A stretch of DNA of 33,219 nucleotides, from IMG/VR virus record IMGVR_UViG_3300046533_000211, positions 1 to 33,219 of that record. The stretch is one strand, 5' to 3'. Position 1 is the first letter of the stretch, and every line of letters starts with the position of its first letter. Origin of the DNA: a virus. Its lineage: Duplodnaviria > Heunggongvirae > Uroviricota > Caudoviricetes. Position numbers and translations under genes: made by a program. Positions 3,727 to 30,152 of this stretch are shown here, piece by piece. The notes below the pieces were generated by a model. It made no database searches. It was not told where the DNA came from and was given only the letters and a program-made list of their open reading frames with translations.

Positions 3727-3754
3727 CAGCCCCCCAGATCTCTCCGGGGGGCTG
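3727..3754. terminator. Hairpin terminator between convergent operons
   Basis: CAGCCCCCC/GGGGGGCTG 9-bp stem between the stops at 3719 (+) and 3769 (-). Confidence 0.75.
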
Positions 3755-3768
3755 CTCTGTGCAGGTGG

Positions 3769-4653
3769 TCAGAACCGCTCGTTGGCCTGCTTCCAGGCGA
3801 ACTTGGCTTCCTCGGCAGCACGCTCCTGCTCAGCCTCGCGCTTGGCGAACTCGTTCTTCCACTCAGCCCAGTCGCGGTTGGCCAGCTCGGCCTCGGCCTG
3901 ATTGTCATCAGCGATGTCCAGGTCACGCACCTGGACATAGGCCTGGGCCACAGGAGCGGGAGCAGCGGCCTTGCCCGCCTTGATGGCAGCCAGTTGCTCG
4001 GCCACCTGGGGATCGAGCGCGGCAGCCTTGCGGGCCGCCTTGTACTCATCGCCACCCAGGATGGCAGGGCCACACTTGGTGCCCAGCCCGATCTTCTTCG
4101 AAATCGGATCCTCCAGGCCACGTGAGCACTGCGCACACACCTGGGTGCGGATGCCGAACTCGGCGATCTGCTCAGGGGTCATCCGCATCTCGGCGGTCAG
4201 CTTGAAGATCATGCCCTTGGCCCACTCCCAGCCATGGGCGGTGACCATCTTGGCCACGAAGCGGCCCGGATTGCGCTTGGACTCGACCACGCGGTACACG
4301 GAACCATCCGTGAAGCGGTAGATGCCCTCAGTGGAAACACTGGGGGCCTCAGCCCTGGCCTGGGCCTGGGCAGGAGCACCACCCTTGCGGTTGGCGAAGG
4401 GCTGCTTGAACAGCCACGTGATCCACTTGCTGGCCTGGTCACCGGTCATACCGGCAGCGGTCATCTCAGCGATCTTGGCAACAACATCCTCGGCGATGAT
4501 CTTCTGGAGGTCACCAGAGACACAACGCTCGATGGTGGCCATCTGCTTAAGGCTGGCAGGCCTGGCCTGGCGGGCAGGGCGATCCTGGCCACCGTTGTAG
4601 CGGTTGGTGCGGGGGTAAGAGGTGCGGTAGCGGTCGGTGCGCTCGTAGCTCAT
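3769..4653 (-). CDS. DUF6011 domain protein (294 aa)
   Basis: CAQCSRGLEDPISKKIGLGTKC fits the CxxC...LxDxxS...GxGxxC zinc motif; AAGGAG SD; preceded by the cassette. Confidence 0.75.
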   Translation of the reverse strand: MSYERTDRYRTSYPRTNRYNGGQDRPARQARPASLKQMATIERCVSGDLQKIIAEDVVAKIAEMTAAGMTGDQASKWITWLFKQPFANRKGGAPAQAQARAEAPSVSTEGIYRFTDGSVYRVVESKRNPGRFVAKMVTAHGWEWAKGMIFKLTAEMRMTPEQIAEFGIRTQVCAQCSRGLEDPISKKIGLGTKCGPAILGGDEYKAARKAAALDPQVAEQLAAIKAGKAAAPAPVAQAYVQVRDLDIADDNQAEAELANRDWAEWKNEFAKREAEQERAAEEAKFAWKQANERF

Positions 4654-4676: not shown

Positions 4677-4725
4677 GGCCTGGTGCCTGGTCGTGCCACC
4701 AATATAACACAGCGCACTAGCAATT
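4677..4725 (-). promoter_or_regulatory. Cassette 1: AATTGCTA-N11-TATATT plus GGCACCAGGCC hairpin
   Basis: Read on the minus strand; box 4718-4725, -10 4701-4706, hairpin core 4677-4687. Confidence 0.85.
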
Positions 4726-8525: not shown

Positions 8526-10118
8526 CTACAGATCCAGCTTGCGGGCTGGGCTGTCGGCCTCGACTGCCTTGGCGGCAGCCTGGGGGCTGGTGGCAGGACG
8601 GGCACGGCCTGCCCACTCCTTGCGGAGCCGGTCGATCTTCTCGGCAGCTGTCTTGGCCAGCGGCACGATGGTCTTGGCTATCCGCAGGATGTCATCCGTG
8701 GTGACCTCGCGGGCATCATCCGCAAAGGAGGTGAACATCGCCTCGGGCACCAGGGCAGCCAGCTCGGCACCCGTGAAGGTATCGGTTGCGTCTGCAATGG
8801 CAGGCAGGTCGATGCCGATGGTGTCGGCGTCCCGCCCGTTGGCCTTCAGTGCTGCAGCCATGACGGCCTCGCGCTCGTCGTGAGTGGGCACGTCGACCCA
8901 CCAGATCTCGTCGAACCTCCCCTTCCTCATCAGCTCCGGGGGCAGCTTGCTGGCGTCGTTCGCCGTGGCAATCACGAACGCGGAACCTTGGCGGTCCTGC
9001 ATCCAGGACAGGATGGCACCCAGTGCGTCGGCAGACACACCACCATCGCCCTGTTCACCCGTGGAACCGGCGAGCGCCTTCTCGATCTCATCCAGCCAGA
9101 CCACGCAGCGACCAATCGCCTCGATCACGCTGAGCGCCTTGCGGAGGTTGCCCTCGCTCTCGCCCACGTACTTGGACTTGAGCGCACCCAGGTCCAGCCG
9201 GATCAGCGGGACGTTCCACTCAGCCGCAAGGGCCTTGGCGCTGTAGGACTTGCCACAGCCTGGGACACCGATGACCATCGTGCCCTTGGGAGCCTGCAGG
9301 CCATAGGCCCGAGCAGCGGGGCTGAAGGCCAGCGACCGGCTGACGAGCCAGGCCTTGTAATCGGGCATGCCGCCCACGATGGACAGGCCACCGGCTGGCG
9401 GGTCGATCCACTCCAGGACACCCTCGCGGGCGATCACACGCTTCTTCTCGCTGGCGATGGTGGCCGGGTCGATCTTGCGGAGCTGGACCAGTGAGCGCGC
9501 GAAGCAGGCTTGCGCTTCCTCACCACTCAGGCCCACGGCTGCGTCGATGGCAGCATCCCGCTGGCCGTTGACTGCCGTCCTCTGCAGCTCCTCGGGCAGG
9601 GATGACACGGTGGCGTCCAGCAGGGCCGCGATCTCCTCACGGTCAGGCAGCGGCCACTCGATCACGGTTGCGTGACCAGCCAGCTCAGCGGGAATGTCGC
9701 CACTGGGGCTGATCACGATCACAGCCTGGGCGTTCTCACGGGCCTGGCCAGGAAGCCAGCGGGCCAGGTTGCGCAGGCGACGCAGTGTCATGGCGCTTGT
9801 CGGACCACTCAGCCACACTGGCAGGTCGCGCATGATCCACACGCCACGCTCACCACTGGTGTCCTTGATGATGTCCAGCGCGCCATCGGGATCGCCCACA
9901 CCCTGGTCTGTGGTCCTGCCGCTGATGCTGGCCACACCTTGGGCAATGTCCCAGGTCCTGGCCAGGTAGCCCGCTGAGGCAGCAGCCTCGAACAGGTACT
10001 TCTCGACCCGCGCTTCCTCGCGACTTACCACCCAGAGGAGTGGGTTGCGGGCACGCAGGAGGGCAGCCACATCAGCGGCAACGGTCTGCGAACGGGTTAC
10101 ATCTGCTTTCACGCTCAT
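8526..10118 (-). CDS. AAA+ ATPase, Ycf46-like (degenerate N-terminal AAA plus active C-terminal AAA; 530 aa)
   Basis: Walker A GVPGCGKS, pore loop KYVGESE, Walker B VVWLDEIEK, SRH ATANDASKLPPELMRKGRFDE. Confidence 0.92.
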   Translation of the reverse strand: MSVKADVTRSQTVAADVAALLRARNPLLWVVSREEARVEKYLFEAAASAGYLARTWDIAQGVASISGRTTDQGVGDPDGALDIIKDTSGERGVWIMRDLPVWLSGPTSAMTLRRLRNLARWLPGQARENAQAVIVISPSGDIPAELAGHATVIEWPLPDREEIAALLDATVSSLPEELQRTAVNGQRDAAIDAAVGLSGEEAQACFARSLVQLRKIDPATIASEKKRVIAREGVLEWIDPPAGGLSIVGGMPDYKAWLVSRSLAFSPAARAYGLQAPKGTMVIGVPGCGKSYSAKALAAEWNVPLIRLDLGALKSKYVGESEGNLRKALSVIEAIGRCVVWLDEIEKALAGSTGEQGDGGVSADALGAILSWMQDRQGSAFVIATANDASKLPPELMRKGRFDEIWWVDVPTHDEREAVMAAALKANGRDADTIGIDLPAIADATDTFTGAELAALVPEAMFTSFADDAREVTTDDILRIAKTIVPLAKTAAEKIDRLRKEWAGRARPATSPQAAAKAVEADSPARKLDL

Positions 10119-11217: not shown

Positions 11218-11357
11218 GAGCGGCCCATCCCCGCCCAGTCATCGAAGCTGCGATCCAGACCGGAGTAGTTCAACGGCTCCTCTGCCGCATCCTCCTTCAC
11301 GCCAAGGGTGGCCTTGCGCTCCTCGCGGTCCTGCCCGCACACGATGCAGGTGCTCAC
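11214..11357 (-). CDS. Hypothetical protein (47 aa)
   Basis: GTGA overlap; CIVC. Confidence 0.45.
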   Translation of the reverse strand: MSTCIVCGQDREERKATLGVKEDAAEEPLNYSGLDRSFDDWAGMGRS

Positions 11358-11680
11358 TTGATCACCTCCCCCGGCAGCACGTTCTCGGGCGTGCTCACGC
11401 TGATGCTGAAGGCAGTGAACGGGCGGTTCGGCCTGCCGTCCGGGCGCACCGGGTTCCGTGGGTCCACAGAGCGCCACAGCTCGAACGCTTCCGTGGAGGT
11501 GTAGCGGGTGGCCTCATCGAGGTTGGGTGTGGTGCGCAGGTGGGCCATCATCACCTGGCCGGTGAGCGGCTCCCTTCCGTCACGTGACGGATCGAACTCG
11601 ACCACATACTGCCCGTCGAACCCAGTCACCCCGCCATTGATCAGCCCGACCACCTGGATGACCACCTCAGTGCTGTCCAT
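11354..11680 (-). CDS. Hypothetical protein (108 aa)
   Basis: GAGGAG SD; ends ...RPDGRPNRPFTAF. Confidence 0.65.
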   Translation of the reverse strand: MDSTEVVIQVVGLINGGVTGFDGQYVVEFDPSRDGREPLTGQVMMAHLRTTPNLDEATRYTSTEAFELWRSVDPRNPVRPDGRPNRPFTAFSISVSTPENVLPGEVIK

Positions 11681-12104
11681 CGTTCTCCTCCTCGTTGGCA
11701 GGCTCGGCCAGCCGCGCCAGCGACTGGGCACGGGCGATCTGGCCCATGATCTCGATCAGGCCCAGCATCTCCACCGGGGCCAGTTCATGCTGTGAGATCA
11801 CCCCGGAGCCATCGCCGTTCACGGTCACCTGGAGCAGGCCGAAGCGGTACACCGTGACATGCTCCACGTCGATCCTGCTGGGGCCGATCACGTCGGGCTG
11901 CACAGGCCTCAGCCGCAGCCCGTGGCGCTCCAGCCCCTCCTTGACGGAGTCCAGGTCCTTCTGGCTGAAGCCACGGAAGCTGAGCAGGTCCATCTCGGTC
12001 ATCGCGGTCAGGGCATCCACGCTGCAGACGCCCTCGCGCTTGAGGATGTTGAACGCCCGCACCGTGAGGTCCAGGTCCTCGATCTGGAGCGGCACAATGG
12101 TCAT
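11667..12104 (-). CDS. RNA polymerase alpha-subunit C-terminal-domain homolog fused to an unknown domain (145 aa)
   Basis: IEDLDLTVRAFNILKREGVCSVDALTAMTEMDLLSFRGFSQKDLDSVKEGLERHGL aligns with actinobacterial RpoA CTD ([25 protein letters not shown]...). Confidence 0.88.
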   Translation of the reverse strand: MTIVPLQIEDLDLTVRAFNILKREGVCSVDALTAMTEMDLLSFRGFSQKDLDSVKEGLERHGLRLRPVQPDVIGPSRIDVEHVTVYRFGLLQVTVNGDGSGVISQHELAPVEMLGLIEIMGQIARAQSLARLAEPANEEENDGQH

Positions 12105-12817
12105 CGGGCTAGCGCCTTCCATCGGTCCAGCATCTCCTGCCAGTCGGCCTTCCATCGGGCCAGCGTCCCCTTCCACTCCGCGACCTGCCAGCTGACCTCG
12201 TCCTTGCCTTCCCCTGCGTCACTGAGTTCATTGAGCACATCGAGCAGGTTGGTCATGTCACCAATCACATTGGTGTCCTCGATGTTTGGCGGCTCAGGCA
12301 GCTTGGCCTCGGCCATGATGGCGCGTCGGAAGATCTTGTTCGCCAGCACCCGCAGGATGGCGTGGTCCTCTAGGAAGTCCTGCTGTTCGGCATCGGGCAG
12401 CGGCTCAGCGATCACCACGAGCTGAGCCTTGTCGGTGCTGAAGGTGTACACGCCCTGCGGCCCCTCCTCCTGGGGGTGGCAGTATTCGCAGTCCTCCTCT
12501 GCTCCGGGGTGCATGACGTGGACCTTGCCGCCGTCCGGGCCGGTGAAGGTCAGACTGTCCTCATCGACCGGCTGATGAGTGGCATGCGTGGCAGCCTGAG
12601 CTGGCGGCAACACGTCACCGCCCCATGTCTCCACCTCGACGGCCCTGCGCTCAGGGGTGCGCTCGATGTACTGCGCCGGGGTCACGATGGCGATGCCGCT
12701 GGTCATCTCGGGGTCGATCTCCGGGTGGGTGAACCCACCGTCGTAGCCCTCCATGTCACCATCCGGGTCGTCACCCAGGTCGACGTGCTCCACGTCAAGG
12801 GGTTCATCCTTGGTCAC
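12101..12817 (-). CDS. Acidic hypothetical protein (238 aa)
   Basis: GTG after GGAGGAG; C-terminal 11-aa repeat W..TLARWKA / WQEMLDRWKA. Confidence 0.7.
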   Translation of the reverse strand: MTKDEPLDVEHVDLGDDPDGDMEGYDGGFTHPEIDPEMTSGIAIVTPAQYIERTPERRAVEVETWGGDVLPPAQAATHATHQPVDEDSLTFTGPDGGKVHVMHPGAEEDCEYCHPQEEGPQGVYTFSTDKAQLVVIAEPLPDAEQQDFLEDHAILRVLANKIFRRAIMAEAKLPEPPNIEDTNVIGDMTNLLDVLNELSDAGEGKDEVSWQVAEWKGTLARWKADWQEMLDRWKALAR

Positions 12818-13580: not shown

Positions 13581-13976
13581 TCAGGTCTGTGTGCGGCGTA
13601 GAGCCGCGAGCAGTCTCAGCCCCTCCGGGCTGTACCGCTGCTGTTCGTAGCTGATCTCCCACCGATTCAGGGCCTCGCGCACCAGCCGCTGGGCGATGCC
13701 ACGCCTCTGGCGCTTCGGGTGGACCCAGACGTTGATGTTCCCGGCCTGCTCCAGATCCGAGGTCGTCGGGTAGTGGTTGAGGATGCCGGTCAGGTCACCA
13801 TGCCGATCCCGCATGAGCAGGCAGTCGACAGGCTCACCGGGTGGCGCATCGTGCTCATTGGCATAGTGGCGCTCGTAGCTGATCCCCGGCTGGCCCTTGG
13901 CCGCATACTGGCACGCCTGCGACTCCCAGGTGTAGACCAGGCCCCAGACCATCTCAGGCTCCCATGTATCGCTCAC
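13581..13976 (-). CDS. GNAT family N-acetyltransferase (131 aa)
   Basis: Acetyl-CoA motif A VWVHPKRQRRGIAQRLV; YSPEG. Confidence 0.8.
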   Translation of the reverse strand: MSDTWEPEMVWGLVYTWESQACQYAAKGQPGISYERHYANEHDAPPGEPVDCLLMRDRHGDLTGILNHYPTTSDLEQAGNINVWVHPKRQRRGIAQRLVREALNRWEISYEQQRYSPEGLRLLAALRRTQT

Positions 13977-14572: not shown

Positions 14573-14623
14573 GGCCTGGTGCCGAACTGAGATCATTAAA
14601 CCATACCGGAATAGCAATTGCTA
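14573..14623 (-). promoter_or_regulatory. Cassette 6: palindrome TAGCAATTGCTA, N11, TTTAAT plus hairpin
   Basis: Palindrome 14612-14623, -10 14595-14600, core 14573-14583. Confidence 0.85.
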
Positions 14624-15307: not shown

Positions 15308-15468
15308 CAGTCCACCTCCAGCTGATCAGGGCTGTAGTAGCTCGGGCGGTCCCGGCAGTCCCACAGGACTCCGATGGTGATGGTGCCCTTCGCAAGCACC
15401 TTCACCACGGACCCCTCGCTGGTGCGACCACACAGCCGCACCCGGTCGCCAAACTCTGGTGACCTCAT
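15304..15468 (-). CDS. Small SH3/KOW-like protein (54 aa)
   Basis: Manually translated: FGDRVRL...EGSVVKV...VLWD...YYSPDQLE; ATGA overlap with Ku. Confidence 0.55.
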   Translation of the reverse strand: MRSPEFGDRVRLCGRTSEGSVVKVLAKGTITIGVLWDCRDRPSYYSPDQLEVDW

Positions 15469-16277
15469 GCCGCCTTGCCCTTCACGCTGGCTTCGAGCTT
15501 GGCCAGCAGGTCTGACACGTCAGACGGGGCCACGTCATCGGCCTCGGTGATGTCCAGCTCCACACCTTCAGCCTTGGCCTCGATGAGGCTGGTGAGCCGG
15601 TTCGTGTAGGTGTCCACGTGGGCGTCCTTGTCGAACTTGCCCACCATGCTGGCCACCAGCTTCTCGGCCATGTCCAGTTCGGCGGCACTGTACTCAGCAC
15701 CCAGGCCGGGGACAGTGGCCTCACGGACCTCATCGGCCCAGCGCAGGGTGTGCAGGACCAGAACGCCCTCCACGACCCGGATGGCAGCGATGTGGGTCTT
15801 GGCCCTCATGGTGAACTCGGCAATCGCCACCAGCCCGCTGGACGCCATTGCGTTGGCAAGCAGGGCATACGCCTTGGAGGGCCGCACGGTTTTCTCGCTG
15901 CCGACCTTCCCACCACCCAGGTAGTAGCTGTCCTCGAACATGATGGGGTCGATCTCGGACTGGTCCACGAACTGCAGGATCTCGATCTGCTTCCCACGCT
16001 CGCCCTCCAGCTGGGCCAGATCATCCTCGGTGATGGTGACCAGGCTGCCGCCCACCTCAATGCCCTTGACGATGTCGCCGTAGGCCACATCCTCGCCGCA
16101 TTCCTTGCAGACGCGCTTGAGTGAGATGCCGCCCATGCAGGTCGGGCCGAGTGACCCTGGCCGAGCATGGTGCTGGTGGAAGCTGACATCGTGGTTATCG
16201 GTCGCCTTATAGAGGGCGACTGGGAACTGGACCAGCCCGAAGCCGAGCTGCCCCGTCCAGGTGCTGCGCATTGCCAT
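15465..16277 (-). CDS. ku: Ku DNA end-binding protein (NHEJ / Mu Gam-like)
   Basis: RSTWTGQLGFGLVQFPVALYKAT, CKECGEDVAYGDIVKG, EIDPIMFEDSYYL, LVLHTLRWADEVR. Confidence 0.95.
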   Translation of the reverse strand: MAMRSTWTGQLGFGLVQFPVALYKATDNHDVSFHQHHARPGSLGPTCMGGISLKRVCKECGEDVAYGDIVKGIEVGGSLVTITEDDLAQLEGERGKQIEILQFVDQSEIDPIMFEDSYYLGGGKVGSEKTVRPSKAYALLANAMASSGLVAIAEFTMRAKTHIAAIRVVEGVLVLHTLRWADEVREATVPGLGAEYSAAELDMAEKLVASMVGKFDKDAHVDTYTNRLTSLIEAKAEGVELDITEADDVAPSDVSDLLAKLEASVKGKAA

Positions 16278-16372: not shown

Positions 16373-16822
16373 TCAGGCGCAATCGCCTGCGTGCTGGGTG
16401 AAGCAGCGCGAGCAGGTGGAGGGCCAGCGCGGCTCCTCTGCCTTGCCCTGACCGAGCGTGCGGAGCTGCCTGGTCCCTACGGGTGAGGTCACGGAGATCT
16501 CGCGGTTGATCTTGGCCAGCTCGGACAGGTGGGCCATGACCGCCCCACGCAGCCCCGGTGACATGTGCCCGGAAGCGAGCAGGTGCCGCAGCGCCAGCGC
16601 CACGTTGCGGGCATGATCTGGCCCGGTGGGCACCCGGCCCTGGAGCACATGCGCCCACTCGTTACGGCGCGCTCTCACGTTGCTCTCGGTGGTGTCTCCC
16701 AGCTCAGCGATCTCCGCATAGGTGAAGCCTGCATCGAGCGCCTGGAGGATCTCGGACAGCCGCAGGTTCGAGCAGTTACGTCCGAGCGTTTCCAGCTCAG
16801 CGGCCTGTGTGGGTGTGTACAT
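16373..16822 (-). CDS. HTH-containing protein with C-terminal CxxCFxxHxGxC motif (149 aa)
   Basis: GFTYAEIAELGDTTESNVRARR HTH; ends CSRCFTQHAGDCA. Confidence 0.7.
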   Translation of the reverse strand: MYTPTQAAELETLGRNCSNLRLSEILQALDAGFTYAEIAELGDTTESNVRARRNEWAHVLQGRVPTGPDHARNVALALRHLLASGHMSPGLRGAVMAHLSELAKINREISVTSPVGTRQLRTLGQGKAEEPRWPSTCSRCFTQHAGDCA

Positions 16823-16849
16823 GCGTGACGACTCCAATCGTTGTGGTCT

Positions 16850-16899
16850 GGCCTGGTGCCAGTTCCTGTGAATCAGGATAGCACACCCCACTAGCAATT
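16850..16899 (-). promoter_or_regulatory. Cassette 8
   Basis: AATTGCTA 16892-16899, N11, TATCCT 16875-16880, core 16850-16860. Confidence 0.85.
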
Positions 16900-22023: not shown

Positions 22024-22239
22024 TCACACTGGTTCGTGCGGTTTGAAACCGAAATACAGTCGTGGCTGGTGGGTGAACTCCAGCGTGCCCACCACGCCAT
22101 CGGACTTGCGCCTGACGGCCACGTAGGGCGCACCGAAGCCCATCACCTCGAAGTCCTTCTGGAGCTGCTCGGTGTCCCAGGTCTGGCCCTCGGGCTGGTT
22201 GCCCGTGCCGTAGTCCTTGATGTGGATGTCGTCGCTCAT
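22024..22239 (-). CDS. Conserved phage hypothetical protein (71 aa)
   Basis: WDTEQLQKDFEVMGFGAPYVAVRRKSDGVVGTLEFTHQPRLYF; ATGA coupling. Confidence 0.7.
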   Translation of the reverse strand: MSDDIHIKDYGTGNQPEGQTWDTEQLQKDFEVMGFGAPYVAVRRKSDGVVGTLEFTHQPRLYFGFKPHEPV

Positions 22240-22667
22240 GCCATCACCTTCCGACGCACCGGGCTGGTGCCCAGCTCTTGATGCAACGTCAGGGCCTTGG
22301 CCTCGGCCCGTTCCTTGTCAGTGTGCGTGCCGCCGTAGCGCCTCTTGTCACGGGTGCAGATGACGACCTGCCAGCGCGAGCGCCAGCGGTTCCAGGTCAC
22401 ACCCTTCACGTCGCTGACCTTCCCGCGCCCCGGCACTGGGCGCACCTTCTCGGCCTCTGGCGGCGGCAGCGGATGGCCCTCCAGCAGGGCCTTGCGCTCG
22501 TCCTCGGTCTTGCCACCCCAGATCCCGAACTCGATCCCGTGCTCCAGCGCATGATCACCGCAGGCCTGCTGGATCGGACATCGCCCACAGATCGCCTTGG
22601 CCTTCTCGATGGCATCCTTGGTGCCGATGAACCACAGCTCGGGGTCCTCCCCGAAGCAGGCGGTCAT
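22236..22667 (-). CDS. whiB: WhiB-family Fe-S transcription factor fused to an AP2-like DNA-binding domain (143 aa)
   Basis: C-x22-C-x2-C-x5-C plus GIWGGKTEDER; C-terminal SDVKGVTWNRWRSRWQVVI...YGGTHTDKERA fits AP2. Confidence 0.85.
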   Translation of the reverse strand: MTACFGEDPELWFIGTKDAIEKAKAICGRCPIQQACGDHALEHGIEFGIWGGKTEDERKALLEGHPLPPPEAEKVRPVPGRGKVSDVKGVTWNRWRSRWQVVICTRDKRRYGGTHTDKERAEAKALTLHQELGTSPVRRKVMA

Positions 22668-22876
22668 GGTGCCATCACCTGCAACGGGTTGGTCCCCGGC
22701 ACGTACTCGCCTGGGACGAGCTGGTGGCTGGGCTGGCTGTTGCCTGCCATGGCACACAGCCACACGTCGATCACGGTCGTGGGCTTGGCATTGCAGTCGG
22801 GGCCTGTCTGGGCCTGGGCCGGGGCTGCCAGACCCAGCGCAAGGGCCGCCATTCCGGCAAGGATCAGCCGCTTCAT
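22664..22876 (-). CDS. Small secreted protein (70 aa)
   Basis: Signal peptide MKRLILAGMAALALGLAAPAQA; two Cys. Confidence 0.7.
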   Translation of the reverse strand: MKRLILAGMAALALGLAAPAQAQTGPDCNAKPTTVIDVWLCAMAGNSQPSHQLVPGEYVPGTNPLQVMAP

Positions 22877-23433
22877 GAGACAAGCAGGTTGTAGATGCGG
22901 CGCTCGGTGGCTGTGGCAGAGCCGCACTCCGTGGCCTGGAAGCTGACAGCGATGGCCTCACCGGGGTTGATGACCCCATTTTCGAAGGCATAGCCGTGCA
23001 GGTCAGTGCCGACCTGGCCAGCAGCGACGGCTCGGGTCAGCACCTGGCGGGCATACGCCCCGTTGCGCTGGTCGATGACATGGGCCACCTCATGGATCGC
23101 CACGGCCTGGATGCCGCCACAGCCACCCGGCTGATAGCCAGCTGCAATATCGTCCTCGACGCTGGCGTTGAACTGATCCGGGGACAGGTTCGCATAGGGC
23201 AGGTTGAGTGTGATCACCCCGTACTGAGTCCCGGCGACAATGCTGTCATCGCCCAGGTTGGCGACACTGACCTGGATCGGGCTGAGGCCCCATCTGTCGG
23301 CCTCAGCGTTCACCGCCGCAACGAACTGCGCCACGGTGTCCTGGTCGGCTGCCGCCTGGGCTGTGGGTGTCAGCACCTGCCCAGACAGGCCAACCGCGAG
23401 GGCCGTGAGGCCCCCCACAATCAGCTTCCTCAA
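22873..23433 (-). CDS. Secreted zinc metallopeptidase (zincin; 186 aa)
   Basis: TTG start after GAAAGGA; signal peptide ending AQA; HEVAH plus downstream GEAIA Glu. Confidence 0.8.
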   Translation of the reverse strand: MRKLIVGGLTALAVGLSGQVLTPTAQAAADQDTVAQFVAAVNAEADRWGLSPIQVSVANLGDDSIVAGTQYGVITLNLPYANLSPDQFNASVEDDIAAGYQPGGCGGIQAVAIHEVAHVIDQRNGAYARQVLTRAVAAGQVGTDLHGYAFENGVINPGEAIAVSFQATECGSATATERRIYNLLVS

Positions 23434-25484: not shown

Positions 25485-25981
25485 CAGAGCGTCCCAGCGC
25501 TGGCCGGGTGCCCAGGTGGCGGGTTCACCTCCACAGGCACCGTCCCCGAGGATGGCGTCAGAGCGATCTGGCAGGCCAGCACGGCACTCCTGGGCCGACC
25601 CATTCCACCAGCCCACACGTCGATGTGGTTCCCACCGCAGGCAGCGCAGGAGTCCTCCACGATCAGGTACTTCGCCAGGTACGGCAGGTAGAGCCGGGTG
25701 CCGGGGGGCCACCGCCCACCGGCCACCGTCGTCGGGTTGTCGTAGGTGCCCACTCCCCCAGCCTCGGAGTGGCGCGGGGCTGGGCCGGGGTAGCGGATGC
25801 GGGCGCTGTACGGCGGGTCGTTGTCGGGGTAGCCGTAGAAGGTCAGCGTGACACTGGCCGTGCTGTCTGCCGATGCCCTACAGGCCAGCTTCTCGCCGAG
25901 TCCCGTGAAGATCAGGACGATGATGATCATCCCCACCACGAACCAGGCCGTCAGGTTGATCTTCTGCCACACGGTCATCAC
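25481..25981 (-). CDS. Membrane-anchored 3D / RlpA-like double-psi beta-barrel protein (166 aa)
   Basis: N-terminal TM; LTFYGYPDNDPP...GGVGTYDNPTTVA...YLIVEDSC...HIDVW. Confidence 0.7.
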   Translation of the reverse strand: MMTVWQKINLTAWFVVGMIIIVLIFTGLGEKLACRASADSTASVTLTFYGYPDNDPPYSARIRYPGPAPRHSEAGGVGTYDNPTTVAGGRWPPGTRLYLPYLAKYLIVEDSCAACGGNHIDVWAGGMGRPRSAVLACQIALTPSSGTVPVEVNPPPGHPASAGTLC

Positions 25982-28392
25982 CGGCCTGCGATGGCCACGG
26001 TGTTCAGCCGTTCCAGCTTGTCCCAGGAGAACTCGGCACCCTTGAGCACCCGGTACAGGCAGGCGTAGAGCAGGTACACGCGCATCAGCTCATAGATCGG
26101 TCGATAGAGCGGGACCACCAGCAGATGCACCAGACTCTCCTTCGCAATCGCCACGGCGGTGATGGCGATGATCGTGTGCATGACGAGCACCACCAGCGCG
26201 AACGCGACGATTGGATGCCAATCCCCCTGCGCCGCCGTGATGCCTGCCACCACCAGCAGGATGGGAAGAAATAGCAGGTTCATCAGGAGCTGAGCCACCG
26301 AGTACGGCATGGTGACCATGCCGAGCACACCGTAGCTGGGCCGGAACAGCATCGCCTTGTTCTTCCACATCACCTGGAAGTTGCCGAACATCCAGCGCTT
26401 GCGCTGCTTGAGTAGCGGGACCACGGTCTCGGGTGCCTCGGTGTCGCAGATCGCGTGGTTCTCATGCAGCACCGCATAGCCCAGCCGCTGGAACGTCATG
26501 GCCGCGTCGGCATCCTCGGCCAGGGTGTCCTCACTGAACCCACCGATTCGCTCCAGGGCGACCCGTCTCCAGGCCGAGCAGGCACCCGGCACGATGCCCA
26601 CCGCACCGACCATCATCTCGGCCATGCGGATGATGCAGATGCCGTTGAGGTACTCCAGCGACTGCCAGGCGGTGAGGATGTTGTTGCGGTTGCCCACCTT
26701 GACGTGACCGGCCACCGCGCCCACGATCTTGCCCCCGTGCACACCCGTGATGAAGTGGCGGGCCAGCTTGCGGATGGTGTCCTTGCGGAACAGGGTGTCG
26801 GCGTCCATGGTCATGATCACGCTGCTGCGTGGGTCCGCATGCCTGACGGCATTGTTCAGGGCCGTCGACTTCCCGGCGTTGCGCTGGTCCACCACCTTCA
26901 GCTGGGGCCAGTCGTAGGCCTGCAGAAGTGACAGCGTGTCATCCTTCGAGCCATCGTTGACCGCAATGACCTCGAAGCGGTTCGCTGGGTAGTCACTCTC
27001 GCGCAGCATGTCCAGCGTGCGCGTGATGACCTTCTCCTCGTTATAGGCAGCCAGGCACACACTGACGAAGGGCAGCTCATCCTCCGGGGTATCCGGCCAG
27101 GCCTTCCTGCGCTGCCGCCACTCGTTGATCACCGACAGGATCAGGTAGAGGCCGGTCAGGATGAGCATCGACCCCACACCGAACCAGAACACCGCCGTGA
27201 GCGCCTTCCGTGGGAGCACGTGAACGGTCTGAATGAAGAACAGCGTGGCCCGGTCGGAGAACGATGGCGTGACGTGCCGGGGCAGGTCTCGCTGAGGCAG
27301 GATGTAGCCCGCCGTGGCGAACTTGTAGCCCTGCGCCTTGGCCTCATGGATCAGCTTCTCCAGCATCGCCACCGTCCCGGCGCGGCTCCTCCCACCGGCA
27401 TCGTGCATGATCACGACGTGCCCGTTGCCATCGAGCTGTGGGACAGGCACCTCCCGGCCCTGAGCATCGAACTCCCAGTCATGGCTGTCGGTGTCGAAGA
27501 GGACCTGGAGGTAGCCGAGCTGCTGCGACTCCAGCTGGGCCAGGCTGTTGACCTCCGGTTGCCCGGTGGGGATGCGGAAGATCGGCGAGGCATAGCCAGC
27601 CACGGCCCGCAGCACACGGTCGGTCAGGTTGATCTCCTGCTGGTTCTGGAAGTCAGAGTGGGCGTCGAACGTCTCGGGGTGCGTCATGGTGTGGTTGCCC
27701 ACCATGTGGCCCTCTCGGATCATCCGCTGGACCAGCTCGGGGTGGTTGGCCACGTTCTGCCCCACCACGAAGAACGTCGCAGGGACATGCTCGCGGGCCA
27801 GCACATCGAGGACCTCCCTGGTCCACACCGGGTCCGGGCCGTCATCGAAGGTCAGGATTAGGGTGCGACCAGGGACCGAGCCGTAGCGGTCCACCGCAAA
27901 GGCATTGCTTCCGATGGTCTGGACCTCGTAGTCGTTGGCGTTCCTGATGAACTCACCAGTGACCGCATCGACCAGCCTGACCGGGGGCGGGGGTGGTGGG
28001 GCGGGCGGCTCAGGCATCACCATGTCAGGCACGCCGTCACCATCGAGGTCATCAGGAATGCCGTCACCGTCGTAGTCGGGTGCCGGGATCGGCTGCAGCA
28101 GAGCAGGATCAGGCCCAGGTGGCGCGCCGCTGCCGGTGTGCTCACGCTCCACCCGTACCAGCCGAGTGAAGATGCCATGATCCTGATCGCCGACCAGTGG
28201 GAGATTGTCATGCTCACCCAGCGTGCGGCGTGCCCAGCCCTCATCGGAGTGGGCACCCCGCACCGGGGAGAACACAGAGGGCAGCAGGATGGCCCCGGCC
28301 CCTCCGATCAGCAGCAGCAGCAGGAACACACTGAGCGCCACCCGAGGTAGCCGCTTCCCGCTCTTGTCGTAGAAGATGGGCGGGCCGCTCAT
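25978..28392 (-). CDS. Bifunctional polysaccharide deacetylase (NodB/CE4) and GT2 glycosyltransferase (IcaA/PgaC-like), 804 aa
   Basis: CE4 motifs TFDDGP, HTMTH, FRIP, DSHDW, IMHDAGG; GT2 motifs AYNEE, NDGSKD, GKSTALN, MDAD, EDAD, QRKRW; C-terminal TMs. Confidence 0.93.
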   Translation of the reverse strand: MSGPPIFYDKSGKRLPRVALSVFLLLLLIGGAGAILLPSVFSPVRGAHSDEGWARRTLGEHDNLPLVGDQDHGIFTRLVRVEREHTGSGAPPGPDPALLQPIPAPDYDGDGIPDDLDGDGVPDMVMPEPPAPPPPPPVRLVDAVTGEFIRNANDYEVQTIGSNAFAVDRYGSVPGRTLILTFDDGPDPVWTREVLDVLAREHVPATFFVVGQNVANHPELVQRMIREGHMVGNHTMTHPETFDAHSDFQNQQEINLTDRVLRAVAGYASPIFRIPTGQPEVNSLAQLESQQLGYLQVLFDTDSHDWEFDAQGREVPVPQLDGNGHVVIMHDAGGRSRAGTVAMLEKLIHEAKAQGYKFATAGYILPQRDLPRHVTPSFSDRATLFFIQTVHVLPRKALTAVFWFGVGSMLILTGLYLILSVINEWRQRRKAWPDTPEDELPFVSVCLAAYNEEKVITRTLDMLRESDYPANRFEVIAVNDGSKDDTLSLLQAYDWPQLKVVDQRNAGKSTALNNAVRHADPRSSVIMTMDADTLFRKDTIRKLARHFITGVHGGKIVGAVAGHVKVGNRNNILTAWQSLEYLNGICIIRMAEMMVGAVGIVPGACSAWRRVALERIGGFSEDTLAEDADAAMTFQRLGYAVLHENHAICDTEAPETVVPLLKQRKRWMFGNFQVMWKNKAMLFRPSYGVLGMVTMPYSVAQLLMNLLFLPILLVVAGITAAQGDWHPIVAFALVVLVMHTIIAITAVAIAKESLVHLLVVPLYRPIYELMRVYLLYACLYRVLKGAEFSWDKLERLNTVAIAGR

Positions 28393-29501: not shown

Positions 29502-30152
29502 CTACTTTGCAGTTTCGCCCGAGTAGTCCTGCAGACGCCATCGCATAGAGCGCACCGAGTGTTCCGTACGACGAAGCAAGCGCGCAATCTCTCTGAGTGG
29601 CAGATCTTCACGCATCACCGTCGCCCGGTCCTCTGATGTCCACGGGCGAGCATGGTGGTCCCGGCGACGGTAGTATCCAATTTCCGATACATCATCGCGG
29701 CGGTCCGGGTCACACGCCTCTACTAGCTCGTCATCGACTACGGAGTGGAGTCGATCCAGATAGGACTGAGCGGCATCCAACACGGCCCTGGCGTTCTTCA
29801 ACCACGTTTGGTCACCGATCTCTCGGGCGTCGGCAACATCACCAGCGAAACAATGCTCGGCGTTGACCTCCCGTAGTTCCCGCTCCATTGAACCCAGTAG
29901 GGCCAGCGTCACTGATCGGAGGTACGCCTGATCCGGTGGCGGTGGCACTGGTAGCGAGCTGATTGTGGCAGGTGTTCGAGCCTTCGGTTCGATAGCCCTC
30001 AGGTAGTTGGACACACTCGATGGGCTGATCCCGAGCTGCGCCGCGATGTCAAGCATCTTGTGACCTTGGCGGCGCAGCTCACGGCACTGGTCCGTCAGCC
30101 TCGCCCGTTTCTCGGGGGAGAAGTGGGCGAATTTCCCCCTAGAGTCGGCCAC
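29502..30152 (-). CDS. Protein with N-terminal HTH and C-terminal Myb/SANT-like HTH (216 aa)
   Basis: GHKMLDIAAQLGISPSSVSNYL; RPWTSED...LREIARLLRRTEHSVRSMRWRL. Confidence 0.75.
   Translation of the reverse strand: MADSRGKFAHFSPEKRARLTDQCRELRRQGHKMLDIAAQLGISPSSVSNYLRAIEPKARTPATISSLPVPPPPDQAYLRSVTLALLGSMERELREVNAEHCFAGDVADAREIGDQTWLKNARAVLDAAQSYLDRLHSVVDDELVEACDPDRRDDVSEIGYYRRRDHHARPWTSEDRATVMREDLPLREIARLLRRTEHSVRSMRWRLQDYSGETAK

Follow-up and report, generated by a model that had tools for sequence, protein, structure and literature searches.

Why a bacteriophage should carry a free copy of the domain at the C-terminus of RNA polymerase (RNAP) subunit alpha (alpha-CTD), and what such a copy may do during infection, are the questions raised by a minus-strand gene at 11667..12104 (ATG at 12104, stop codon at 11667-11669), which codes for the 145-aa two-domain protein P0001. 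The gene lies in the window, i.e., the whole stretch of 33,219 nucleotides that was analysed, which represents the first 33 kb of a 97,219-bp IMG/VR virus record and forms a non-structural arm of nearly all small minus-strand genes. The 145-aa gene call and the same neighbours recur in identical DNA from four independent JGI metagenome assemblies, and a Logan assembly places the P0001 start six codons earlier, at ATG 12122, as an alternative start.

P0001 is composed of an alpha-CTD (residues 6-66, equivalent to E. coli 255-315 and M. tuberculosis 249-309; 11907..12089 as delimited by Pfam, PDB sequence matches, and fold, and 11928-12089 in the genome search), a flexible linker of low pLDDT (residues 67-77; 11874..11906), a C-terminal beta-beta-beta-alpha domain seen solely alongside alpha-CTDs (residues 78-133; 11706..11873), and an acidic, probably disordered tail (residues 134-145; 11670..11705), all on the minus strand. 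The second domain of about 75 aa anticipated by the original prediction is real and conserved, and spans about 70 aa when residues 78-133 are taken together with the tail. Upstream, the stop codon of a 238-aa gene (12101..12817, minus) overlaps the P0001 start (ATGA), and a homologue occupies the same place in the related phage L095; downstream, a 108-aa gene (11354..11680, minus) with its own ribosome-binding site, GGAGGAG, overlaps the end of P0001 by 14 nt and is 68% identical in L095. Acidic in its N-terminal half, the product of the translationally coupled upstream gene ends in a helical, tryptophan-rich C-terminus (W-x-x-x-W spacing), and its conservation in L095 is limited to the C-terminal ~95 aa. 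Neither flanking gene has a match in Pfam, PHROGs, NCBIfam, or PADLOC, and the PADLOC defence-system models match neither P0001 nor its two neighbours.

Homology, fold, and residues of the alpha-CTD

The N-terminal domain of P0001 is a genuine RNAP alpha-CTD, in agreement with the original prediction of a phage homologue. Residues 6-59 match Pfam RNA_pol_A_CTD (PF03118) at E 6.4e-15, with a score of 55.1 bits where 23.8 is the cut-off, and phmmer aligns P0001 to residues 248-320 of M. tuberculosis and M. smegmatis RpoA with E 1.4e-14. The AlphaFold2 model, built from a 19-row alignment, has a mean pLDDT of 89 that rises to 97-98 over residues 11-60 and shows a compact helical fold with two helix-hairpin-helix (HhH) motifs; VIA-align superimposes it on the B. 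subtilis alpha-CTD 1z3e_B with Z 12.0 (rmsd 1.7 Å over 65 residues) and on E. coli alpha with Z 11.5. The closest cellular alpha-CTDs, searched in 185,579 species-representative genomes, are those of Nocardia and Tsukamurella (59%), followed by Mycolicibacterium, Rhodococcus, and Gordonia (57%), which fits a Mycobacteriales-type host on sequence grounds. Conversely, the match to the NCBIfam rpoA models (TIGR02027 / PRK05182) is confined to their last ~60 positions, with 57 bits against a cut-off of 434, and the alpha N-terminal domain (PF01193, PF01000) is absent from P0001 in the Pfam search; P0001 is hence not an RNAP subunit and cannot assemble into RNAP.

The comparison of individual residues relies on E. 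coli RpoA from NC_000913, to which BLASTP aligns P0001 without gaps (P0001 residue i = E. coli i+249; M. tuberculosis numbering = P0001 residue + 243). All of the predicted correspondences are borne out in this alignment: R265 and N268 are kept as R16 and N19, position 261 stays acidic (E261 to D12), TEVE at 285-288 becomes TEMD (residues 36-39), and the hairpin NLGKKS at 294-299 becomes GFSQKD (residues 45-50). Nevertheless, to judge from the sequences, E. coli is the wrong yardstick and actinobacterial RpoA the apt one. In the consensus of 28 distinct actinobacterial alpha-CTDs, position 261 is D, 285-288 read T-E-x-D, and 297 is Q, so that D261, TE-x-D, and Q297 of P0001 are the host's own residues and no evidence for selective retention. 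Compared with the actinobacterial alpha-CTD (M. tuberculosis 248-320; PDB 5UH5, 8HIH), P0001 has the same fold and 50-59% identity, and shares R259, N262, K265, R266, R287, and K292 of M. tuberculosis RpoA, together with D at E. coli position 261 and TE-x-D; it differs in the missing N-terminal domain, in GFSQKD (11955..11972, minus) for the invariant NFGQKS, and in C269I. Moreover, it is phage-encoded, fused to a new acidic beta3-alpha domain, and evolves about 10 times faster, phage branches being about 10 times longer than cellular ones in the tree.

The second hairpin and what follows it, R-N-F-G-x-K-S-I-D-E, are invariant across the 28 actinobacterial sequences. Of the positions with at least 90% conservation in cells, 12 differ from the consensus in P0001, and on the DNA face the departures are C269I, N294G, G296S, and S299D. 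The GFSQKD hairpin is no assembly error, since the independent assemblies carry identical DNA. The partners of the determinants are DNA for 265, sigma region 4 for 261, and CRP AR1 for 287 (PMC1874639), and in B. subtilis the equivalents of R265 and G296 could not be replaced by alanine (PMC4495994). The 265 determinant is incomplete in P0001, where R265, N268, and K298 are kept and C269I, G296S, and S299D are changed, a deviation that bears on function and not on domain membership. In the M. tuberculosis GlnR complex, T257, R259, N262, R266, R287, N288, and K292 are probable DNA-phosphate contacts, and N262, K265, and R266 contact the GlnR DNA-binding domain, although the map has a local resolution of 5.5-7.5 Å and the authors word these contacts with "may" (PMC10235972). 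The corresponding positions of P0001 are T14, R16, N19, K22, R23, R44, G45, and K49, all kept except N288. In E. coli, SoxS and MarA, when off DNA, dock on the same 265 determinant (PMC9638938).

The two-domain phage family

An exhaustive phmmer search of 1.84 billion representatives returns 1,827 alpha-CTD matches, many of them multi-repeat or fused, and among the matches listed at least 13 proteins of about 130-170 aa match P0001 over both domains. Together with word-index matches, the family amounts to at least 19 clusters including P0001 (alignment A2), the 18 others being 31-58% identical to P0001 and alignable end to end over both domains. The build is common to all 19: an alpha-CTD, a short linker, a conserved segment of about 55-60 aa with the consensus VEHVTVYRxG..VTVNGDGS...ELxxxExxALCxI, and an acidic tail. 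In every member the C-terminal half has a net charge of -3 to -9, and the whole proteins have a pI of 4.3-5.3. Other architectures occur beside this family: the metagenomic proteins P0010, P0011, P0012, and P0014 are built of 8-13 alpha-CTDs repeated in tandem (reaching 1031 aa), and P0137 (116 aa) joins a Phd/YefM-like antitoxin N-terminus to an alpha-CTD.

The conservation pattern of the family was expressed as retention, i.e., the share of the 19 phage sequences that have the cellular consensus residue at a given position. Mean retention over all 58 positions is 0.56; it is 0.70 for 11 DNA-face positions chosen beforehand (p = 0.059), 0.57 for the second hairpin (294-299), and 0.95 for the helix-1 set R265, N268, K271, R272, and R293, a value that five random positions reach in about 0.1% of draws, the set having been picked post hoc. 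Family-invariant positions are R265, N268, L270, R272, L289, R293, and L307, of which R265, N268, R272, and R293 are surface residues. The helix-1 patch itself, RAFNILKR in P0001 (12036..12059, minus; E. coli R265-A272), is marked by this conservation and by the M. tuberculosis contacts (PMC10235972): no family member differs at R16, N19, or R23, and the position of K22 is K or R in 18 of 19. Conversely, K298, S299, and the following I-D-E, which are invariant in the 28 cellular sequences, vary among the phage proteins (position 298 is K in 8 members; position 299 is S in 6, G in 5, D in 4, and E in 1, with others in the remainder), as fits a relaxed constraint on canonical UP-type DNA binding. 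Read from the alignment, the two halves of the DNA/activator patch have fared differently in the family: the helix-1 half is kept, the K-S-I-D-E half released. This is at odds with the original picture of kept protein-contact faces and an altered DNA face, as retention of the 261 determinant (0.61) and of the 287 determinant (0.67) is close to the average and that of the helix-1 patch is not. Because these two determinants are not preferentially kept, the proposed binding to sigma or CRP-type activators finds no specific support.

The tree, whose 58 columns are compatible with a single capture as well as with several, groups P0001, P0002, P0003, P0004, and P0017 in a subclade (97/95), all with K298 followed by D or E at 299. 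P0001 pairs with P0003; N294G is common to both (P0003 has GMGQKD), and G296S occurs in P0001 alone. Sixteen of 19 members keep G296, and of the three without it two carry a glycine at 294 (GFS, GMT), which leaves their hairpin with one. As G296S is private, paired with N294G, and leaves one glycine in the hairpin, DNA binding by P0001 is probably weakened and still possible. Of the predicted decoy that would act without DNA, the free-standing phage alpha-CTD and the hairpin changes G296S and S299D therefore stand, and the complete loss of DNA binding gives way to a probable weakening.

The C-terminal domain has no named counterpart in the collections searched. Modelled alone (pLDDT 82), it forms three strands and a 24-residue helix, and every protein recovered with a profile of this part bears PF03118. 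Pfam, PHROGs, NCBIfam, and PADLOC give no match for it, Foldseek against PDB and BFVD gives none at E <= 0.001, the ESM Atlas yields no named relative by shape or by features, and motif scans of 185,579 representative prokaryote genomes and of IMG/VR, from which the window's own record may be missing, turn up no relative. The best fold matches are small dimerisation modules with scores within the chance range, a weak resemblance: the P1 ParB C-terminal dimer domain (1zx4; VIA-align Z 4.2, rmsd 2.1 Å over 48 residues), the F SopB C-domain (3kz5; Z 3.3), COMM domains ranking after these, and a ParB-family row of the ESM Atlas (TM 0.51). Like the P0001 domain, 1zx4 and 3kz5 have a three-stranded sheet followed by one helix and a similar size; unlike the ParB C-terminal domain, which binds DNA, the P0001 domain is strongly acidic, and there is no sequence similarity. 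The domain may make P0001 dimeric; a homodimer prediction from two copies of alignment A4 scores 0.33, with the mark at 0.42, and weighs neither for nor against it. A faint similarity to the alpha N-terminal domain (BLAST, E. coli, E 2.3) was dropped, as a profile comparison with full RpoA reveals none.

Candidate functions and the phage context

The original prediction is likely right in kind, in that a free alpha-CTD copy would meddle with transcription. Specifically, P0001 may be a free competitor of the host alpha-CTD for the ligands of the helix-1 patch, the first-ranked reading, to which we assign a probability of roughly 0.4. An alpha-CTD would have been captured from an actinobacterial (Mycobacteriales-like) rpoA and joined via a flexible linker to a small acidic beta3-alpha domain, possibly dimerising. 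We infer that P0001 acts in trans against the host's own alpha-CTDs, outside RNAP, and that its helix-1 patch (R265, N268, K271, R272, R293) is offered to the usual docking partners, which would be the DNA-binding domains of OmpR/PhoB-type activators (GlnR, PhoP) and perhaps upstream promoter DNA. In P0001, the canonical contact with the DNA backbone is probably weaker owing to G296S and S299D, a change that would tilt the balance toward protein ligands, and the outcome would be host RNAP uncoupled from alpha-CTD-dependent promoters during infection.

The serious rival, ranked second, stems from the same residues: since the four invariant surface residues are DNA contacts and G296 is kept in most members, the family may simply bind DNA. 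It is possible that P0001 is a DNA-binding phage regulator in which the alpha-CTD serves as an HhH minor-groove/backbone module, made bivalent by the C-terminal domain. P0001 has six of the seven M. tuberculosis DNA-contact residues (N288 excepted), the members without G296 tend to carry the glycine at 294, S at 296 also occurs in the phages L003-L005 (hairpin NISQK), and other phage alpha-CTDs are fused to DNA-binding modules, including sigma region 4 in L009. On the other hand, K298 and S299 are variable, with an acidic residue at 299 throughout the P0001 subclade, and the proteins are acidic, above all in their C-terminal half. The sites of such a regulator could conceivably be AT-containing UP-like DNA of the host, occluding the host alpha-CTD, or the AATT-centred AATTGCTA boxes of the phage.

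The AATTGCTA box is enriched in the window, with 9 occurrences against 0.12 expected, and belongs to promoter-like cassettes on the minus strand at window positions 4718, 8491, 10183, 14612, 16342, 16892, 17609, and 24312. The aligned cassette comprises AATTGCTA, 11 nt, an extended -10-like T/A-rich hexamer, a conserved GGCA-NNN-GGCC leader hairpin, and a Shine-Dalgarno site. The P0001 gene lies between the cassettes at 14612 and 10183; the former, whose box is palindromic (14612..14623, minus), is the nearest one upstream and, judging from its position, probably heads the operon that contains P0001. P0001 is thus probably an internal gene of a multi-gene unit whose promoter class is shared with Ku and an AAA ATPase. 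The box also occurs in the closest relative L095 (five in 16 kb) and is missing from the corresponding arm of Catdawg, a phage with no copy of the gene, a distribution that would suit a binding site for P0001. This co-occurrence, however, is that of three related phages, and distant family members go without the box (none to two in their contexts). Moreover, the DNA upstream of the boxes is GC-rich, and no AT-rich UP-like tract is found in the aligned cassettes, which speaks against the reading as a DNA-binding regulator.

The genomic contexts of the family are phage-like strings of small genes. In the window, P0001 is accompanied by Ku (15465-16277, minus; also L011 4427-5206 and L095 4897-5688), an AAA ATPase (8526-10118) with 53% identity to its counterpart in Cluster O mycobacteriophages, e.g., Catdawg, a GNAT acetyltransferase (13581-13976, minus) located three to four genes upstream and kept in L095 and in the SRR26076634 contig, and a glycosyltransferase-deacetylase (25978-28392). 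The synteny with L095 follows the order Ku (75% identity to the window), GNAT (66%), the 238-aa upstream gene (46%), the alpha-CTD protein (48%), the 108-aa gene (68%), the AAA ATPase (75%), a 326-aa gene (69%), a 113-aa gene (76%), and DUF6011 (56%). The alpha-CTD protein and the gene preceding it are the fastest-evolving of the shared set, and the low conservation of the former (48%) with respect to its neighbours (65-76%) is often typical of genes that interact with the host. The distant contig L011 has only Ku and the alpha-CTD protein in common with the window, and in four of five long contexts (window, L011, L095, SRR26076634 contig) a Ku gene of the same orientation is located 3-4 kb upstream. 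L098 shows no Ku over 16 kb. Catdawg shares with the window the AAA ATPase, the two genes beside it, and Ku, and has no alpha-CTD gene. A megablast of 6 kb against GenBank phages gives no match.

The same arm encodes a WhiB domain (PF02467, E 4.6e-22; 22485-22664, minus) inside the ORF 22236-22991, whose product of about 251 aa is far longer than ordinary WhiB proteins and is a second potential RNAP-directed factor. Two small sigma-70 region 4-like or HTH proteins are encoded on the minus strand at 29502-30152 and 16373-16897 (Sigma70_r4_2 E 7.8e-7 and 1.6e-3, respectively). As for the GNAT protein, the phiKMV-type GNAT Rac reportedly causes cleavage of the RNAP alpha subunit, and a functional link between the gene at 13581-13976 and the alpha-CTD gene is conceivable by analogy. 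The idea that the GNAT inactivates host alpha like Rac and that P0001 compensates was set aside, proximity being its sole support.

An unlikely alternative is that P0001 is a trans-acting adaptor, in which the C-terminal domain and the acidic tail, both conserved, dock on host RNAP or on a phage factor so that an extra, phage-specified alpha-CTD redirects the polymerase; such a detachable alpha-CTD could, with similarly low probability, steer host RNAP to the unusual AATTGCTA-box promoters of the phage. It would account for the two domains being an obligate pair on a flexible linker, like alpha itself, for the translational coupling to an upstream gene whose homologue is kept in L095, and for the coexistence of an unusual promoter class and a WhiB-domain protein in the same arm. 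Yet the C-terminal domain resembles neither the alpha N-terminal domain nor any named family, and the upstream gene is not recognisably kept in the more distant family contexts. Lastly, it is highly improbable that P0001 assists the phage Ku as an accessory factor for DNA ends or repair, with the HhH as a generic DNA binder: the recurrent upstream Ku, the overlap of the window with L011 in nothing but Ku and this gene, and RAD51-type HhH domains among the fold matches would suit it, but the sequence is clearly derived from rpoA and not from a repair HhH, L098 has the gene with no Ku nearby, and Catdawg has Ku and no alpha-CTD gene.

Relation to known systems and biological meaning

In the P0001 family, a known domain occurs in phages with a new architecture. 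Other phage alpha-CTD proteins, known from automatic annotation, include gp005 of the Bacillus phage Goe8 (210 aa), those of the Mycobacterium phage Mithril (149 aa) and the Rhodococcus phage Finch (240 aa), ORF40 of the Erythrobacter phage vB_EliS-L02, and a fusion protein in L009. Like P0001, they join the alpha-CTD fold to an unrelated module; unlike it, they have other partners in other orders, lack the P0001 C-terminal domain, and are 17-40% identical to P0001, an identity confined to the alpha-CTD. The alpha-CTD of the Erythrobacter phage ORF40 has received a passing mention (PMC9127768), and our literature searches for phage alpha-CTD homologues retrieved annotation-level mentions and no functional study. 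Among low-GC IMG/VR phages, L009 encodes at 3750-4514 a 254-aa fusion of sigma-70 region 4 and an alpha-CTD, and L003-L005 encode at ~5100-7300 proteins of 600-720 aa that contain an internal alpha-CTD with NISQK or NISRK as its hairpin; the G296-to-S change in L003-L005 arose independently of that in P0001. Two further phage alpha-CTD proteins, both high-GC, have 118 aa and 248 aa. A tblastn search of GenBank phages retrieves solely Firmicutes-type alpha-CTDs, several of which resemble host rpoA in unannotated records, and Goe8 gp005; absence by tblastn is weak evidence, because the Mithril and Finch proteins, matched in the fold search, are missed.

Phages are known to attack the alpha-CTD in other ways: gp67 of S. 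aureus phage G1 reportedly shields its DNA site, T4 Alt/ModA ADP-ribosylate R265, and the phiKMV-type GNAT Rac leads to alpha cleavage (PMC3694059, PMC2988021, PMC4495994, PMC7552054). The probable outcome resembles that proposed for P0001, i.e., the loss of alpha-CTD-dependent host transcription. The means differ, as G1 gp67, Alt/ModA, and Rac bind or modify host RNAP, whereas P0001 would copy the target domain, and there is no sequence relation. The pre-recruitment of SoxS and MarA and the GlnR complex define the 265/helix-1 patch as a protein dock as well as a DNA contact (PMC9638938, PMC10235972). SoxS, MarA, and GlnR are ligands of the patch and not homologues of P0001, and they illustrate the putative partners of the phage protein.

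If P0001 is a competitor, copying the alpha-CTD as a free protein would be a strategy distinct from modifying, shielding, or cleaving it; if it is instead an adaptor, supplying a subunit domain in trans would be a way to reprogram bacterial RNAP. The mycobacterial alpha-CTD has only lately been observed in complexes with the activators GlnR, PhoP, and DosR. A natural, fast-evolving free alpha-CTD with a conserved patch would probe which mycobacterial alpha-CTD contacts matter, and it may become a tool with which to shut down activator-dependent transcription in M. smegmatis.
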